DNA from: a virus
Lineage: Duplodnaviria > Caudoviricetes
Strand: one strand, 5' to 3'
DNA length: 29,244 nucleotides
Virus record (IMG/VR): IMGVR_UViG_3300044723_002141
Coordinates: 1-29,244 of that record
Each line of letters opens with the position of its first letter. Within the stretch, counting starts at the first letter, position 1. Under the pieces are notes generated by a model. It ran no database searches. It was not told the DNA's origin and was given only the letters and a program-made list of their open reading frames with translations. Position numbers and translations under genes: made by a program. Positions 8,682 through 28,055 of the stretch are shown here, one piece after another.

Positions 8682-8689
8682 TATTTTTG
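8682..8689 (+). promoter_or_regulatory. -7 element 4 nt before tape-measure ATG
   Basis: TATTTTTG-TACT-ATG. Confidence 0.6.
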
Positions 8690-8693
8690 TACT

Positions 8694-11036
8694 ATGGCAA
8701 ATCAAGAGCATTTAATAGTAAATATATCGGCGAACACAAGAGGATTAAACGCTGGTTTAAATAAAGCACAAAGCAAATTAGCATCTTTTGGCGGTAAATT
8801 AAAAGCGGTTGGTTCACAACTCCAAACACGCCTTGCCTTACCTTTAATTGCTGGTGGTGGTGCTGCTATAAAAATGGCGGCAGACTTTGATAAGTCAATG
8901 ACCAAAATTAAAACCCTTGTTGGGGTTGCTGGCGCAGAGGTGGATGCTATGGCTTCTTCTGTAACTAAATTTGCAAATCAGGCGGGGGTATCTTCTGGAG
9001 AAGCCGCTGACGCATTATTTTTTATTACTTCCGCTGGACTTCGTGGCGCAGATGCTATGGCTGTATTAGAGGCATCAACAAAAGCCGCCGCGATTGGTCT
9101 TGGCGAAACTAAAACAATAGCAGATTTAGCCACTTCTGCGATGAATGCGTACGGAATAGACACATTAGGTGCAACCGATGCGACTGATGTTTTGACCGCC
9201 GCTGTTCGTGAGGGAAAACTTGAAGCTAATGAACTCGCTGGTGCAATGGGTAGAACTTTGCCCGTTGCTTCTAATATGGGTATTCAGTTTCACGAAGTAG
9301 GTGCAGCTTTTGCTGCTATGAGTAGAACGGGAACTAATGCCGCAGAAGCATCTACACAGCTTAATAGTATTATGATGGGTATTATGAAGCCCACCAGCGA
9401 TGCTGAAAAGGCGATGAGAGAATTAGGTCTTTCAAGCCAAGGTTTACGGCAGCAAATAAAAGATGAAGGATTATTATCTGTATTAGAAACATTACGACAA
9501 GCTTCAGAACGCAACTCTGGGGCTTTTGAGCGCGTTTTCGGTAACGTTCGAGCATTACGGGGGATTTTAGATTTAACAGGCAAAGGGGCTGCGGTAACGG
9601 CTGAAATCTTTCAGCGTATGGCAAATACATCTGGTGTAACGGCTACTGCTTTTGAGGAATTACAAAATTCATCTGAATTTAAGTTACGCCAAGGATTAAT
9701 AGAATTAAAAAATACATTTACTGATTTAGGGGCTGTTTTAATGGATAGCCTTTTGCCATTATTTCAAAATATATTAAAATTCGTTACAGGATTATTTAGA
9801 GGGTTTGGACAACTTGACCCAACAATACAACAATTAGTAATAGGTTTTGCTGCGTTAGCGACGATTTTGCCAACTGTATTAACAGTATTAGGAAGCCTTT
9901 CAACTGTAATAGCGGCAATAAATGCGCCAATTGTTTTAGTGGCTGCGGCAATAGCTGGATTAATATATTATTTTGATGATATAGTTAATGCTTCTATTTT
10001 GTTTAAAAACGCCATAAAATCTAATATATTACGTGTTTTAATTCGTGTTGAGGAATTTTTTAAGAAATATATTTTTCGACCACTAAAAACCGCAGGTCTT
10101 TTATTAAGTGAATTTAGTGAAAATTTATTAGGCGGCGATTTTTCAAGTATTTTAGGTGCTTTTTTTGAAGAAGGTGAACAAATATCAAAAGATGCTGGAA
10201 AAAAATTAGCTGATAGTTATATTGATGAATGGGAGAAAAATACCGCTGAAAGAGTTAGTGGTATGTCGCAATTGTTTAATAAAGTTAAAAATCAATTTAC
10301 AGAATTATTTGGCGGCGTTGGTATAGTTACTCCAACTGTTAAAGCTGGTGCTGTTGCTGAAAAATCCCCCGACTTAATGAGTATTTTTGGGGGTGCAAAA
10401 ATGCCAACTGACCCTATTAAAAATTTAGCAACATCTACAAGCTGGTCTAAACTCAATAATAATATTGAAACTTCAAGTAAAAAAATTAAGGAACTTGAAG
10501 AAAATAGATTGAACAAACTTAAAGAAACTGCTGATGCTGTGAGTGGTGCTGTTAGTAATGCTTTCGGAAATATGAGCAACCAATTAATGGCTTCTTTAGG
10601 TTTAGCGGATAGTGGTTTTGAAGGGTTTGTTAAAGGGTTAATATCTACCATTACCCAATTAATAGCAATGATGTTATCCGCTGCTATTTCTCAATCTATT
10701 GCTGGTGCAACCGCTTCTGGAACTGCAACAGGACCAGCTGCTGTTTTTACTACCCCAGCTTTTATTGCAACGGCAGTCGGAGGTGTTTTAAGTGCTTTTG
10801 CTGCAATACCAAAATTTGCAAATGGGGGGATTGTATCTGGACCAACTTTAGGTTTAATGGGCGAATATGCAGGGGCAAGAAATAACCCTGAAGTTATCGC
10901 GCCACTTGATAAATTACAAGGAATGATTGGGCAAACAGGGCAAAATGTAAACGTAGGGGGCGAATTTAGAATACAAGGGCAAGATTTAGTAGTAGCATTA
11001 CAAAGAGCCGAGCGAAATAGAAAACGTATCTTATAA
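8694..11036 (+). CDS. Tail tape measure protein (TP901 family)
   Basis: 780 aa, Ala/Gly-rich helical; AADFDKSMTKIKTLVG core; C-terminal PKFANGGIVSGPTLGLMGEY. Confidence 0.95.
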   Translation: MANQEHLIVNISANTRGLNAGLNKAQSKLASFGGKLKAVGSQLQTRLALPLIAGGGAAIKMAADFDKSMTKIKTLVGVAGAEVDAMASSVTKFANQAGVSSGEAADALFFITSAGLRGADAMAVLEASTKAAAIGLGETKTIADLATSAMNAYGIDTLGATDATDVLTAAVREGKLEANELAGAMGRTLPVASNMGIQFHEVGAAFAAMSRTGTNAAEASTQLNSIMMGIMKPTSDAEKAMRELGLSSQGLRQQIKDEGLLSVLETLRQASERNSGAFERVFGNVRALRGILDLTGKGAAVTAEIFQRMANTSGVTATAFEELQNSSEFKLRQGLIELKNTFTDLGAVLMDSLLPLFQNILKFVTGLFRGFGQLDPTIQQLVIGFAALATILPTVLTVLGSLSTVIAAINAPIVLVAAAIAGLIYYFDDIVNASILFKNAIKSNILRVLIRVEEFFKKYIFRPLKTAGLLLSEFSENLLGGDFSSILGAFFEEGEQISKDAGKKLADSYIDEWEKNTAERVSGMSQLFNKVKNQFTELFGGVGIVTPTVKAGAVAEKSPDLMSIFGGAKMPTDPIKNLATSTSWSKLNNNIETSSKKIKELEENRLNKLKETADAVSGAVSNAFGNMSNQLMASLGLADSGFEGFVKGLISTITQLIAMMLSAAISQSIAGATASGTATGPAAVFTTPAFIATAVGGVLSAFAAIPKFANGGIVSGPTLGLMGEYAGARNNPEVIAPLDKLQGMIGQTGQNVNVGGEFRIQGQDLVVALQRAERNRKRIL

Positions 11037-14435: not shown

Positions 14436-14480
14436 AAACCCCCTTGCGATTTAGGTTGCGGGGGGTTTTTTATATTTTTT
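14436..14480 (+). terminator. Strong intrinsic terminator ending the tail module
   Basis: AAACCCCCTTGCGAT-TTAG-GTTGCGGGGGGTTT then T-rich run. Confidence 0.85.
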
Positions 14481-16050: not shown

Positions 16051-16083
16051 GGGGTGGCTTTCGGGCTGCCCCTTTTATTTTTT
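16051..16083 (+). terminator. Intrinsic terminator
   Basis: GGGGTGGCT-TTCG-GGCTGCCCC then TTTTATTTTTT. Confidence 0.85.
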
Positions 16084-17783: not shown

Positions 17784-18047
17784 ATGAAATTTAGCAAATA
17801 CAGTAGGGTTTATTGGAGTGAAACAAGGCAGCGACCTAAATATGTTAGAAATACATCGGCTGGTGATATTCCTGTAAGCTATGAATATGTTGGAATGATG
17901 ACCTTGGCAGAGTATGAACTGCTTATTGAGGTGCTGTTCGAATTATTTGAAGATGACCCGATTAAGTTAGAGGCGTTTCAATATATCTTTGGCGATATTA
18001 GAACGTTTTGCGATAAACTAAAAAATATTTTAGAACAAGAGGATTAA
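17784..18047 (+). CDS. Hypothetical protein
   Basis: 87-aa ORF in operon orientation; no motif recognised. Confidence 0.65.
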   Translation: MKFSKYSRVYWSETRQRPKYVRNTSAGDIPVSYEYVGMMTLAEYELLIEVLFELFEDDPIKLEAFQYIFGDIRTFCDKLKNILEQED

Positions 18048-18051
18048 TTTT

Positions 18052-18059
18052 TATATTTG
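18052..18059 (+). promoter_or_regulatory. -7 promoter element for the replication leader
   Basis: TATATTTG-TAGT-ATG; expected start ~18064. Confidence 0.7.
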
Positions 18060-18063
18060 TAGT

Positions 18064-18161
18064 ATGCAAAGTAGAGGTTGCATTTTGAAAATTTTTAGGT
18101 TGGTAAACCGACCCTTGATTGCGATGTACCCTCTACTACATCAACGTCAAGGGTTTTTTTT
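18064..18161 (+). ncRNA. Putative structured leader RNA: hairpins with complementary loops, ending in a terminator
   Basis: ATGCAA[AGTAGAGG]TTGCAT; GGTT[GGTA]AACC; ACCCTTGA..GATGTA[CCCTCTAC]TACATC..TCAAGGGT plus T8; GTAGAGG is the reverse complement of CCTCTAC. Confidence 0.72.
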
Positions 18162-18171
18162 ATGGAAGTAA
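18064..18171 (+). CDS. Possible leaderless leader peptide (35 aa) overlapping the initiator start
   Basis: MQSRGCILKIFRLVNRPLIAMYPLLHQRQGFFLWK; stop at 18169-18171, just past ATG 18162. Confidence 0.3.
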   Translation: MQSRGCILKIFRLVNRPLIAMYPLLHQRQGFFLWK

Positions 18172-18956
18172 ACAAAATATACAAGCCGCAGCGATTCGAT
18201 AACTATACGGTTATACCGAATGCTATATTTCGCCACCAAGGTATATCTGTTGGCGCAACAGGATTATACTGCTGGATGTTTTCACACAAGTCTGGCTTTA
18301 CGATTACCGTTCAATATATCATTGGGCATTTTAAAGAAGGCAAGGATTCAATTAACGCCAGGATAAAAGAATTGATTGCTGTTGGTTTTTTGGTTCGTAA
18401 AGAAGTGCGCCAAAATGGAAAGTTCGCAGGGTATAATTATTTTCTAAATGATACCCCAACCACCGTGGCGGAAAAAACCGTAACGGGAAAAACCGCAGCG
18501 GAAAACACCGTCGCGGTAAATCCGCAACAAAGTAATACTATATATAGTACTATATATAATACTAATAATAGTACTATAATAGATACTAATAAAGAAATAA
18601 TAAATAAAGAAAAGGGTAAAATCAAAAAACTGCAAAAAACGTTCGCTGATTTTGACCCGCCAGTACAATCTTGTTTTTTAAATATCATTGAATTATTTCC
18701 AGAACAAACCCGCCCAAGAACAAAAGATACTAAACGTAAATGGGTGCAAATAATCGACGACCTTTGGCGCAAAGATAAACACCACCCACGCAAGGTTTAT
18801 ATTTTAACGCAAAGAGCAAGACAGGACAGTTTCTGGGCGCAAAATTATTTATCTATTACAAAGCTGCGAAAACGAAATAAGGACGATATTAAATACATTG
18901 ACCTTTTCGATTATAAATTTGGTAAGGATTTAAAAACTGTAAACTGGGAGGAATAA
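18162..18956 (+). CDS. Replication initiator with N-terminal winged HTH
   Basis: DNYTVIPNAIFR....GATGLYCW...IKELIAVGFL; internal iterons; upstream of primase-helicase. Confidence 0.8.
   Translation: MEVNKIYKPQRFDNYTVIPNAIFRHQGISVGATGLYCWMFSHKSGFTITVQYIIGHFKEGKDSINARIKELIAVGFLVRKEVRQNGKFAGYNYFLNDTPTTVAEKTVTGKTAAENTVAVNPQQSNTIYSTIYNTNNSTIIDTNKEIINKEKGKIKKLQKTFADFDPPVQSCFLNIIELFPEQTRPRTKDTKRKWVQIIDDLWRKDKHHPRKVYILTQRARQDSFWAQNYLSITKLRKRNKDDIKYIDLFDYKFGKDLKTVNWEE
18462..18610. repeat. Putative replication origin: four 15-bp iterons plus AT-rich tract
   Basis: ACCGnnnCGGnAAAn at 18462, 18477, 18492, 18507, followed by TACTA-repeat AT-rich DNA 18531-18610. Confidence 0.75.
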
Positions 18957-19495
18957 TGTTTAAACTTGACGTAGAAAAAGAATTAATAGATAAAGCCGTT
19001 TATTTGGTTGAAACATATAACTTCGGAAAAAGAAGCGAAGCTAATGGAAATAAAAATCAGCAAATTGTTGGGATAATTGGCGAACAAGTTATTCGTGATT
19101 TATTTAAAGCTGGTGATATTGATGGCAAAAGTGGCTTTGACGGGGGCTATGATATTGAATACTATAATAAGCTAATCGATGTAAAAACAATGTCAAGAAA
19201 ATGCGAGGTAAGACAAGATTTTGTTTCTAATTTTATGGAGTTACAATTAAGCCACAGCGCAACGCATTTTATTTTTAACTCATTTAATACGGTTAAAAAA
19301 GAAATAACTGTTTGCGGATATATATCTAAACAGGAATTTTTAGAAAATGCTGACTATTATCCTAAAGGTTCGTATCGTTTTAGAACCGATGGGACATCTT
19401 TTCAAACTTTTTCTGGGTTATACGAGATAAAAAATAAATATTTACACGACGTTAATGGATGGATTGAATTAATACAAAACTTAAAATATGATTAA
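18956..19495 (+). CDS. Hypothetical protein, possible restriction-endonuclease-like PD-(D/E)XK fold
   Basis: GIIGE ... DGGYD ... IDVKT pattern. Confidence 0.55.
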   Translation: MFKLDVEKELIDKAVYLVETYNFGKRSEANGNKNQQIVGIIGEQVIRDLFKAGDIDGKSGFDGGYDIEYYNKLIDVKTMSRKCEVRQDFVSNFMELQLSHSATHFIFNSFNTVKKEITVCGYISKQEFLENADYYPKGSYRFRTDGTSFQTFSGLYEIKNKYLHDVNGWIELIQNLKYD

Positions 19496-21161
19496 CGAAT
19501 TTTTAGCCATAGGTATAGAACCTAAAGGCAACGCAGAAGAACAAAAACTAAAATGCCCAAAATGCTCACCCAACAGAAAAAACAAAGCCGATAAACCGCT
19601 TTCAATTAATTTGTCAAAAGGCGTTTATAATTGCCATAACTGCGGGTGGGCTGGGAACGTAAAATTTAAACCAAAGGTTGATTATATAAAACCGCCAGAG
19701 GTTGAAAATGAATTATCATTTAAAACAATAAAATGGTTTAATCAACGTGGTATTTCAGAGGCAACCATAGCGCATTGGAAAATAGGCGAATCAAAAGAAT
19801 ACTTTCCGCAGGTATCTAAAAACCGCACCGCAATAAATTTTAAATATTATAGAGAAAACAAACTCGTAAATATCAAATATCGAGATGGTGAAAAGAATTT
19901 TAAAATGGTGCGGGGCGCTGAACTTATTTTTTATGGCTTGGACGCGATTAAGGAAATGGACACTATTTACATTGTTGAGGGCGAAATGGACGCTTTGTCA
20001 TTACACGAAGCGGGAATTTATTCTGTTTGTAGCGTTCCTAACGGCGCATCAAAGGGTAACCAACGCCTTGAGTATTTAGATAACTGTTGGGAGTATTTTA
20101 AAGACAAAAAGGAAATAATACTTTGCACCGATAACGACCAACCAGGGTTAGCTTTGCGTAACGAACTTGCGCGTAGATTCGGACAATACCGCTGTAAATA
20201 TGTAGAATTTAAGGAGTTTAAAGACGCAAACGATGTTCTTGTAAACAAAGGCGCAGAGGTTTTAAGAAACCAGCTAAAAGACGCTAAAAACTTTCCTTTA
20301 GAGGGTATCGTAAACATTGACGATATTTGGTCAAACGTATTAAACTACAATGAAAACGGAATTAAAAATTATAGCATTAGCCTTACTGATAGTGATAATT
20401 ATTTTAAACTGGCTTTGGGAGAATGGTCTGTTATTACTGGCATTCCTAACAGCGGAAAGTCTGACGTGGTTGACCAAATTTGCTGCAACCTTGCAATGAA
20501 TGAGGACTTTAGGGTCGGAATGTTTGCGCCTGAATCGTTTCCATACGAAGGACACATCAAGCGAATAGCCAATAAATTAAACGAGCGCAACTGTGATAAT
20601 GAAACACTAAACGCAAGTAAAAACTTTATTGAAAACCATTTTTATTTTATTAAAATCGACTTGGAAAATTTAACACTCAAAGGTGTGTTAGATAATTTAA
20701 GGGATTTGGTTTTTCAAAAAGGTATTAATATTTGTGTGATTGACCCGTGGAATATGCTCGACCATTCAGCACAAAAAGACCACTCATATATCGGTCGGAT
20801 GCTTTCTGAAATTACGCAGTTTTGCCAACAAACAAAAACGCATTTATTTTTAGTGGCGCACCCAAGAAAAATGGAAGCCGAGAACGGAACGTATAAAGTT
20901 CCAACGCCTTATGATATTAGCGGGTCATCTGACTTTTTTAACAAAGCGTATAATTGCCTTACGGTTTATCGTCAGATAGGTCAGCGTAACGAATACGGAA
21001 GCGATAACGTTGAGGTTTACGTGCAAAAAGTAAAGCGCAAAGAAAATGGGCAGCAAGGAAAATTTATAATTGCGCCTGATTTTAAGAATGGGGGGGTCTA
21101 TAAAAATGGAAACCTTGAAAAAGTAAAAAGATTAGACGTCACAAATAATTTACCTTTTTGA
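19488..21161 (+). CDS. Bifunctional primase-helicase (T7 gp4/Twinkle-like)
   Basis: CPKC...CHNC zinc finger; TOPRIM VEGEMD, DND, KDAND; Walker A GIPNSGKS; VIDP; VAHPRK; DISGS. Confidence 0.95.
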   Translation: MINEFLAIGIEPKGNAEEQKLKCPKCSPNRKNKADKPLSINLSKGVYNCHNCGWAGNVKFKPKVDYIKPPEVENELSFKTIKWFNQRGISEATIAHWKIGESKEYFPQVSKNRTAINFKYYRENKLVNIKYRDGEKNFKMVRGAELIFYGLDAIKEMDTIYIVEGEMDALSLHEAGIYSVCSVPNGASKGNQRLEYLDNCWEYFKDKKEIILCTDNDQPGLALRNELARRFGQYRCKYVEFKEFKDANDVLVNKGAEVLRNQLKDAKNFPLEGIVNIDDIWSNVLNYNENGIKNYSISLTDSDNYFKLALGEWSVITGIPNSGKSDVVDQICCNLAMNEDFRVGMFAPESFPYEGHIKRIANKLNERNCDNETLNASKNFIENHFYFIKIDLENLTLKGVLDNLRDLVFQKGINICVIDPWNMLDHSAQKDHSYIGRMLSEITQFCQQTKTHLFLVAHPRKMEAENGTYKVPTPYDISGSSDFFNKAYNCLTVYRQIGQRNEYGSDNVEVYVQKVKRKENGQQGKFIIAPDFKNGGVYKNGNLEKVKRLDVTNNLPF

Positions 21162-22934: not shown

Positions 22935-22942
22935 TAATTTTG
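22935..22942 (+). promoter_or_regulatory. -7 element 4 nt before small-terminase ATG
   Basis: TAATTTTG-TAAA-ATG. Confidence 0.6.
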
Positions 22943-22946
22943 TAAA

Positions 22947-23309
22947 ATGAGTCAACAACAATCAACAGCTATAAAAAAGAAAGCAATGCTTGAGGCGTTA
23001 GAAAAAACTTTAGGCGTTGTGACAACCGCTGCCAAAATGGTTGGTATTGAAAGAACCACACATTACCTTTGGTTAAGAGAGGACGAAGAATATAAAGCCG
23101 CAGTAGAAGATGTCCAAAATGTAGTTTTAGATTTTGCTGAATCGGCTTTACATAAAATGGTAGAAAACCACCAACCAGCAGCCACTTTATTTTTATTGAA
23201 AACAAAAGGGAAAAACAGAGGTTACGTAGAACGCCAGGAAATTGTACACGATGGCAGACTTGAAACCGAAGTGGTTCAGTATAGAGTAAACAAAAAAGAT
23301 GATAATTGA
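22947..23309 (+). CDS. terS: Terminase small subunit
   Basis: HTH (GVVTTAAKMVGIERTTHYLW), FLLKTKGKNRGYVERQE; overlaps terL start. Confidence 0.85.
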   Translation: MSQQQSTAIKKKAMLEALEKTLGVVTTAAKMVGIERTTHYLWLREDEEYKAAVEDVQNVVLDFAESALHKMVENHQPAATLFLLKTKGKNRGYVERQEIVHDGRLETEVVQYRVNKKDDN

Positions 23310-27356: not shown

Positions 27357-27364
27357 TATCTTTG
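27357..27364 (+). promoter_or_regulatory. -7 element 4 nt before protease ATG
   Basis: TATCTTTG-CATT-ATG. Confidence 0.65.
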
Positions 27365-27368
27365 CATT

Positions 27369-28055
27369 ATGAATACAATGTTATATAAATCAACTCATTT
27401 AGGCGAGGTAATTGATGCCGATGAAAAAATGGGAATCGTAAAAGGTTATGGTTCTGTTTTTGGGAATGTAGATTCCGACGGCGATATTATCACAAAAGGC
27501 GCATACACTAAAACAATAAGCGAAAACGGTAATCGAGTAAAGTATCTTTACCAGCACGATATGGATAAGCCTATCGGTAAAATGATACACCTTGAGGAGG
27601 ACGCTAAAGGTTTGGTATTTGAGGCGCAAGTGCCTAAAACGCAACTTGGAAAAGATGTAATCGAGTTAATGAAAGCTGGAGTAATTTCTGAAAACTCCGT
27701 AGGTATTTTACCACTACAAAAAAGAATGAACGGCGAATATCGCGAACTTACCGAAGTTAAATTATTTGAAATTTCAGCGGTTACTTTAGCTGCTAATGAC
27801 CAAGCAATGATTTTGGATGTAAAAGGAAACGTGGATTTGGAAAAGGTAACAAAGCGTTATGACAAAATCGCCCGATTAATTCGTAAAGGCGAAATTTCCG
27901 ATGAACTTGGATTCGCCCTTGAAGCTGAAATCTTAAAACTCAAATCAATATACGTAAACGCTACTCTGCCGACCGTTGAAGTCACAGAGCCAGAAATCGT
28001 AAAAACTGACACGAGTGAGATTGTTAAATATTTGTATAATCGTTTAAATAAATAA
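27369..28055 (+). CDS. HK97 prohead protease
   Basis: GYGSVFGNVDSDGD, LYQHD...PIG, NSVG, LFEISAVT.AAN. Confidence 0.95.
   Translation: MNTMLYKSTHLGEVIDADEKMGIVKGYGSVFGNVDSDGDIITKGAYTKTISENGNRVKYLYQHDMDKPIGKMIHLEEDAKGLVFEAQVPKTQLGKDVIELMKAGVISENSVGILPLQKRMNGEYRELTEVKLFEISAVTLAANDQAMILDVKGNVDLEKVTKRYDKIARLIRKGEISDELGFALEAEILKLKSIYVNATLPTVEVTEPEIVKTDTSEIVKYLYNRLNK

Follow-up and report, generated by a model that had tools for sequence, protein, structure and literature searches.

In the guanidine-IV (mepA) RNA, a 5′ hairpin and the terminator hairpin pair through their loops, in competition with completion of the terminator. As described in PMC11611296, kissing-loop formation blocks terminator completion within a narrow transcription window. 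The IncI and IncB plasmids (repY, repZ, Inc) use loop-initiated long-range pairing ahead of a replication initiator gene; by the accounts in PMC4705826 and PMC10724649, the pairing partner there flanks the SD, control is translational, and a separate antisense RNA is involved. The P4 CI RNA (seqA/seqC) and the P1/P7 c4 RNA link short complementary boxes to premature termination before replication genes (PMC4825925, PMC2864571, RF01695).

The timing and dosing of replication genes in Bacteroidota phages are little described. A catalogue of candidate viral RNAs (PMC10690425) includes entries without annotation that lie upstream of HTH_36/Phage_rep_O genes. The most notable, DNAVirus_4859, is 106 nt long, comprises 40 aquatic Caudovirales sequences, and lies at most 25 nt upstream of HTH_36/Phage_rep_O/DUF4373 genes. 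Its catalogue description gives one covarying pair and no terminator call, and neither a function nor loop-loop pairing appears there. Here we describe a leader that precedes the replication initiator gene of a tailed phage and its relatives. Judging from the comparison of related sequences, it is a real, conserved RNA element, and apparently an uncatalogued one.

The leader and its genomic setting

The window, that is, the whole stretch of 29,244 nt analysed here, is the 29-kb virus record IMGVR_UViG_3300044723_002141, which is 93% complete and carries tailed-phage genes. Its sequence is best represented in estuary metagenomes. We infer a Bacteroidota host because TAnnTTTG boxes stand before genes, because the nearest cultured primases belong mostly to Cellulophaga, Tenacibaculum, and Flavobacterium phages, and because relatives occur on MAG contigs of Saprospiraceae and Flavobacteriaceae. 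The original prediction had seen no evident integrase or CI in this phage. No integrase was seen among the 42 distinct ORFs scanned; a 62-aa Cro/C1-type HTH protein is present.

On its 5′ side the leader adjoins a conserved 87-aa ORF of unassigned function (17784–18047, plus strand), which is present in 26 of 26 near-complete relatives and had no match when Pfam, PHROG, and Atlas were searched. On its 3′ side stands the gene for a winged-HTH, lambda-O/DnaD-like replication initiator (18162–18956, plus strand), with PHROG matches to replication-initiation and DnaD-like proteins at E about 2e-12. A 179-aa ORF (18956–19495) and, two genes on from the initiator, a primase-helicase gene (19488–21161) follow on the same strand (18956–21161 together) and are likely on one transcript with the initiator. 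Within the initiator gene, four iteron-like ACCGnnnCGG repeats with 15-nt spacing (18462–18516) are likely the iterons of a lambda-type origin. Plain intrinsic-terminator-like hairpins occur at 14440–14465 and at 16051–16072, the latter within the early gene run; no -7 box was seen before the exonuclease gene.

Every element of the leader named in the original prediction was found in its place when read directly in the sequence. A Bacteroidota -7 promoter box, TAnnTTTG (TATATTTG, 18052–18059, plus strand, as are all features below), gives a predicted +1 at A18064; such boxes sit at -12 to -5 relative to +1 (PMC9723704). By itself the box is no rarity here, with 37 copies in the genome versus 46.6 expected. 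The predicted +1 is the first base of hairpin P1 (18064–18083), whose loop, AGTAGAGG (18070–18077), carries the 7-nt address GTAGAGG (18071–18077). A 28-nt A/U-rich linker (18084–18111) follows, with 16 nt single-stranded outside P2, a small hairpin (GGTT-GGTA-AACC, 18098–18109) that is lineage-specific and also occurs, with a different loop, at the related locus L120. The long interrupted hairpin P3, together with its T run, spans 18111–18161 and is a predicted intrinsic terminator. It has 17 bp (18111–18154), a loop, CCCTCTAC (18129–18136), that carries the address CCTCTAC, and a T8 run (18154–18161) that counts the last T of the stem; its base lies 8 nt 5′ of the initiator ATG (18162). The 7-nt complement between the two loops, GTAGAGG/CCTCTAC, is exact. 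A 35-codon frame, a putative uORF (18064–18171), is likewise open as proposed, from the predicted +1 to a stop 10 nt into the initiator.

RNAfold resolves the leader into three hairpins at -28.6 kcal/mol (z -2.3), and 1 of 200 shuffles folded as well. The loop-loop match exceeds chance: a 7-nt complement of the loop arose in 83 of 20,000 shuffles of the 5′ part of the leader, whereas the 7-nt loop-loop match arose in 0 of 3,000 whole-leader shuffles and in 2 of 5,830 genome windows, namely the leader site and one weak fold (-6.2 kcal/mol). The P3 stem has a computed energy of -17 kcal/mol with T8. A simple terminator scan did not flag this hairpin, whose stem is interrupted.

An alternative, predicted antiterminator helix (18070–18137) would pair 18070–18077 with 18130–18137 and 18079–18084 with 18123–18128. 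This helix between the P1 and P3 loops (L1:L3) can extend to 14 bp in the window, which would remove the top of P3. At full length, the computed folds differ by 1.9 kcal/mol (antiterminator -26.0, terminator -27.9); nascent RNAs of 70–86 nt have the alternative helix in their computed minimum-energy fold. A single change found in two relatives (A18138G in L001/L002) raises the computed share of the L1:L3 helix from 0.11 to 0.92; when 60 nt of upstream RNA are added to the window leader, the computed ensemble lies fully in the terminator fold. The one RNA run in which the stretch occurs gave two uninformative 151-nt records at depth 2 (17784–17934 and 17953–18103), for which DNA carry-over is possible.

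Conservation, covariation, and spread of the leader

Protein-based scans yielded 258 partly redundant loci, which reduced to 129 distinct junctions between the 87-aa ORF and the initiator. Sixty-eight junctions are at most 43 nt long, 59 are 90–135 nt, and 2 exceed 300 nt. The 59 were folded blind; 54 had a strong 3′ hairpin and were kept, and 5 weak folds, which look like small ORFs, were dropped. The same leader design is thus present in 54 of the 129 junctions, while 68 are leaderless, so the leader is dispensable in many relatives.

A perfect complement of the 3′ hairpin loop spans 7–8 nt in 51 of the 54 leaders and 6 nt in 2 more. It lies near the predicted start, mostly within the 5′ hairpin loop, and the two complementary 7-mers are spaced 39 to 71 nt apart. 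In the 54th leader (L145), six Watson-Crick pairs are joined by one G·U, an intermediate state. Loop complementarity among initiator homologues, on which the original prediction turned, is therefore perfect over 6–8 nt in 53 of 54 leaders and completed through G·U in one. The 54 leaders use 12 types of loop pair, 11 of seven bases and one of six. Over the seven-base types, 76 of 77 cognate positions are Watson-Crick, which was equalled in 0 of 200,000 permutations; these permutations, like the shuffles that follow, ignore kinship. In a MAFFT alignment made from sequence only, with 24 leaders chosen for diversity and three poorly aligned rows included, 93.6% of cells pair and 17 of 21 pairs change on both sides. 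None of 500 shuffles reached these values, and slid controls gave 32–56% pairing. The P1 and P3 stems covary along with the loop-loop pairing, or kiss, with two-sided changes in 4 of 4 tested P1 pairs.

The -7 box goes together with the leader, being present in 51 of 54 leaders versus 2 of 68 leaderless junctions, with a purine at +1 in 40 of the 51 boxed leaders. At least 6 T occur in the first 8 nt after the stem in 46 of 54 leaders, and the initiator AUG lies 8–26 nt 3′ of the stem in all 54. Linkers in the main clade of relatives measure 13–22 nt; linker and helix lengths are uncorrelated (rho -0.28, p 0.14), in a comparison where the automatic parse mis-set the window-type rows. Some leaders differ inside the terminator stem. 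L004-type leaders (e.g., L131:2392-2500) have a conserved internal UGA/GAU motif, which we take to be tandem G·A plus U·U pairs as in kink-turn stems; at its place L053 and L117 have AGUA/GAA, presumably loop-E-like. The window subtype has neither.

That subtype is small (L001–L003 and L120/L225). DNA pattern scans of viral contigs returned mostly chance matches and added L290 and the L281/L369-type leaders; among the matches listed, none was a further member of the window subtype. Between the window and L001–L003, the leader has 1 difference in 98 nt, while the flanking genes have 16 in 264 and 20–22 in 270 (6–8%); this contrast shows purifying selection on the leader. The L120 leader is of window type and differs from the window at two compensated pairs. 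L153 and L154, from nearly identical phages, differ by one compensated pair, with 305 of 310 initiator positions and 111 of 115 leader positions identical.

Inheritance is patchy. Leader-bearing and leaderless phages are interleaved in the primase tree (a quick version) and in the initiator tree (FastTree). In L120 a window-type leader precedes an initiator that belongs to another clade and has leaderless phages as its nearest rows; L097 has a main-clade leader on a third type of initiator. Together with the interleaving, these two cases indicate that leader and initiator are shuffled or lost independently. Among near-complete genomes, no gene family set all 11 leader-bearing ones apart from the 15 leaderless ones; a ParB-like gene occurs in 11 of 11 versus 6 of 15, a difference confounded by kinship. 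The L058 and L059 junctions (41–43 nt) contain a degenerate box-like sequence and lack the hairpins, and the L058 primase is sister to those of the leader-bearing L108/L109. These spacers are possibly the remains of a lost leader.

A covariance model recovered every expected leader. It also found a second copy in genome G011 (L563:590-708, minus strand), before a NUMOD4-HNH endonuclease gene. In the 15 leaderless genomes the model found nothing, and a generic detector found one doubtful site (G035). Among 151 Bacteroidota genomes, the model found one MAG with two phage-like copies; an extra weak match (E 0.024) was rejected, the leader being absent by eye.

Fourteen cultured phage records, picked by similarity, were also examined. 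Ten carry the architecture ahead of replication or HNH genes, namely the Cellulophaga phages phi18:3 (two sites), phi13:2, phi19:3, phi46:3, and Nekkels_1, and the Flavobacterium phages morran9-1, lillamy9-1, mumin6-1 and snusmum6-1 (both of these with two sites), and elemoC_14-1A. Their likeness to the window's leader is one of architecture (the covariance model scores phi18:3 at E 0.56); blastn with the window leader gave no match to the cultured phages. Polarity is reversed in some of them, and the 5′ box of phi13:2-type leaders lies outside any predicted hairpin. The detector did not flag the cultured phage phi19:1, and three Bacteroides phage loci have no leader within 1.5 kb of the match. 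The phi18:3 genome has an annotated tyrosine recombinase, and its second leader (L608:23584-23690, plus strand) precedes the gp059–gp061 (YopX) cluster. Directly 5′ of the box, phages of the mumin and lillamy types have another, simple terminator-like hairpin (by eye); the leader hairpin is therefore unneeded for ending the upstream gene. An Rfam DUF805b match lies before a ParB-like gene of morran9-1 (L612:557-591), and in mumin and snusmum the gap matching this site is apparently occupied by an HNH gene that a kissing-loop leader precedes. Because morran9-1, lillamy9-1, mumin6-1, phi18:3, and others are in culture, the leader can be tested directly.

A proposed cis attenuator and its alternatives

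We put the chance at somewhat better than even that the leader is a cis transcription attenuator, with pairing between the loops set against closure of the terminator. This reading builds on the architecture, the conserved loop-loop pairing, the purifying selection, and the two near-equal computed folds; cis antitermination is taken as likeliest because of the nascent L1:L3 fold and the kiss precedent of guanidine-IV. The predicted promoter would start the transcript at P1, and as the RNA grows the P3 loop would emerge before the 3′ arm of P3. The P1 loop could then pair with the emerging P3 loop and hinder closure of the putative terminator, so that polymerase would read into the initiator and primase-helicase genes; transcripts missing the pairing would stop as an RNA of ~95–98 nt. 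Pairing would thus mean ON, a direction proposed by analogy with guanidine-IV. In its simplest version this would be a kinetic throttle, folding against elongation; ribosome loading at the +1 AUG may tune it in the window lineage. On read-through mRNA, a closed P3 may also damp initiator translation. Such a second layer is plausible because the base of the hairpin lies 8 nt before the AUG and because translation in Flavobacterium is lowered by structure close to the start codon (PMC6847099).

For 43 of 54 leaders, the computed minimum-energy fold of the growing RNA contains the L1:L3 helix. In the complete leader the nested antiterminator trails the terminator by a median of 5.9 kcal/mol across the 54; the near tie in the window is specific to its lineage, and the larger family-wide gap leaves only the 7-bp kiss as general. 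The original proposal of an attenuator or pseudoknot switch survives in part: a conserved, covarying leader exists and an attenuator-type switch is its likeliest function, while the uORF as a family feature, an antisense RNA, and c4-like targets found no support, as detailed below.

It is unlikely, though compatible with the cis attenuator, that the terminated RNA also acts in trans, its P3 loop capturing the P1 loop of new leaders with the same address and blocking read-through. Genome copies would in this way be held down by feedback, or phages sharing the address would be excluded, a logic like that of P4 CI, for which PMC4825925 offers a precedent. Addresses do switch among very close relatives and recur, with 9 changes on a tree of 40 main-clade leaders. 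Parsimony on this tree gives 8 Watson-Crick-to-Watson-Crick steps in the kiss, confined to positions 3 and 5 while five positions stay unchanged, versus 3 steps over 10 terminator pairs. However, the P1 stem pairs are as changeable (8 steps over 4 pairs), so the tree is no demonstration of diversifying selection on addresses. Two leaders within one genome use unlike addresses in G011, phi18:3, mumin, and snusmum. Against a trans role, a free RNA could mask its own loop, and the design is present in phages described as virulent (the LMO6/LMO9 phages of PMC7077304). No c4-like targets appeared elsewhere in the genome: extra own-address copies number about 10 versus 12.6 expected over 19 genomes or fragments, a count of 7-mers only and of weak power, and the additional pair of GTAGAGG copies within the exonuclease gene does not rise above background. 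Feedback on the phage's own nascent leader would need neither extra target sites nor an antisense promoter. One address, CCGCGAC, has 13 extra copies versus 1.3 expected in its users, apparently in coding contexts, and we tentatively read the excess as lineage codon use.

Were the trans reading right, and we give it the same low probability, the leaders would form an address-coded, RNA-only control class of Bacteroidota phages, with read-through pairing in cis and a block by terminated RNA in trans. A phage could then count its genome copies and shut off, or exclude co-infecting phages of the same address, and need no repressor protein; unlike addresses would insulate several circuits, such as replication and homing nucleases, in one genome.

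Another improbable reading gives the kiss the opposite sign to that proposed for the cis attenuator. The folding tools used cannot model a 7-bp kiss between 6–8-nt loops that coexists with both stems, and such a kiss could make a compact, stable RNA that favours the OFF state, through termination or start-codon masking, or protects from decay. Consistent with this, both stems and the kiss covary together, and the single-stranded linker, kept near 16–17 nt where the hairpin has 16 bp, may be barely long enough to bridge a stacked kissing complex. The start-codon effect in Flavobacterium (PMC6847099) would fit as well, and the design precedes NUMOD4-HNH nucleases, which are plausibly kept low. 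In the window, however, the kiss can grow to the 14-bp helix that removes the top of P3, and the guanidine-IV kiss and full terminator become mutually exclusive as the linker shortens (PMC11611296).

Control as in IncI repY/repZ, in which translation of the uORF opens P3, the ribosome re-initiates at the initiator AUG, and the pseudoknot helps, is quite improbable. In the window the uORF ATG lies at the predicted +1. The tape-measure, small-terminase, and prohead-protease genes also start exactly at the +1 of a TAnnTTTG box (8682–8696, 22935–22949, and 27357–27371; starts at 8694, 22947, and 27369), and their mRNAs are likely leaderless, a class to which about 5.5% of the mRNAs of one flavobacterial host belong (PMC9723704). 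These three genes make leaderless translation of the uORF credible here. L120 also has a 35-codon frame, which contains an in-frame 3-nt indel and ends 11 nt into the initiator; its ATG, however, begins 2 nt before the predicted +1. Substitutions between the window and L120 fall 8/7/9 on codon positions 1/2/3, without codon-position bias, and an A at +1 followed by the TG of the P1 stem gives an ATG unaided. Across the family, an ATG near the start is missing in 27 of 54 leaders and lies at +1 in 13 of 51; lengths vary between 3 and 75 codons, with every reading frame represented, and those that extend into the initiator number 7 of 54, found in the window/L120 lineage and in a handful of isolated leaders. 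A uORF as a family feature, as first proposed, is thus not upheld, a repZ-type leader-peptide mechanism is unlikely for the family, and the uORF is possibly a lineage-specific modulator rather than part of the core. The antisense RNA known from IncI or pT181 fares no better: a minus-strand -7 box within -20 to +120 occurs in 10 of 54 leader-bearing versus 20 of 68 leaderless junctions, none conserved, and no box of this -7 type lies on the minus strand near the leader in the window.

It is a very remote possibility that the two 7-mers serve the initiator as a DNA operator in the form of an inverted repeat, or match by chance beside an ordinary terminator. Some main-clade addresses resemble iteron half-sites (window iterons include GTCGCGG and GTAACGG). 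Addresses do not follow the iterons of their own initiator, however: for 9 of 12 address labels the cognate initiator gene contains no copy, which led us to reject the iteron-operator idea. The variably spaced 7-mers (39 to 71 nt) both lie in hairpin loops with covarying stems. Run over 985 kb, the generic detector returned 33 box hits, at about 25 sites of which one is doubtful, versus 0, 0, and 0 in three shuffles.

Comparison with known systems

The original prediction could assign the leader to no named RNA family, and Rfam 15 bears this out. The window gave 0 matches at the gathering threshold (best E 0.49–2.9), 11 related loci gave 0 matches, and 13 further loci gave only two tRNAs and the DUF805b match, away from the leaders. 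The passages and listings returned by a literature search contained no description of such a leader; the supplements of PMC5737381 and PMC10690425 may bear on its novelty. DNAVirus_4859 may be the same element, judged by its catalogue description. A swappable address would account for sequence-based RNA catalogues missing the leader.

Compared with the P4 CI and c4 RNAs, the leader has no Rfam C4 match, and a third target site was not found. Its box sits on an intrinsic terminator-like hairpin, and it occurs in phages described as virulent. With IncI/IncB it shares loop-initiated pairing before an initiator and, in the window lineage, an overlapping uORF. Unlike in those plasmids, the pairing partner is the loop of a terminator-like hairpin, and neither the uORF, which reaches the initiator in 7 of 54 leaders, nor an antisense promoter is conserved; start-codon sequestering of the IncI/IncB type is absent, the AUG being 3′ of the stem in 54 of 54.

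Guanidine-IV is of similar size and has the same P1 loop-terminator loop kiss, seen in our leaders as pairing potential and covariation. The ligand-binding motif sequence is not conserved in the leader, which gave no Rfam match to guanidine-IV, and address and stems vary freely. The gene context differs as well: guanidine-IV precedes exporters, whereas the leader precedes phage replication and nuclease genes. The leader resembles a kissing-loop attenuator yet falls outside guanidine-IV, IncI, and c4/CI membership. Its orthogonal addresses could become regulatory parts for Bacteroidota. If a widespread leader gates initiator and nuclease genes through loops that pair by an exchangeable 7-nt code, and lacks any conserved ligand pocket, then kissing-loop antitermination would reach further than riboswitches.
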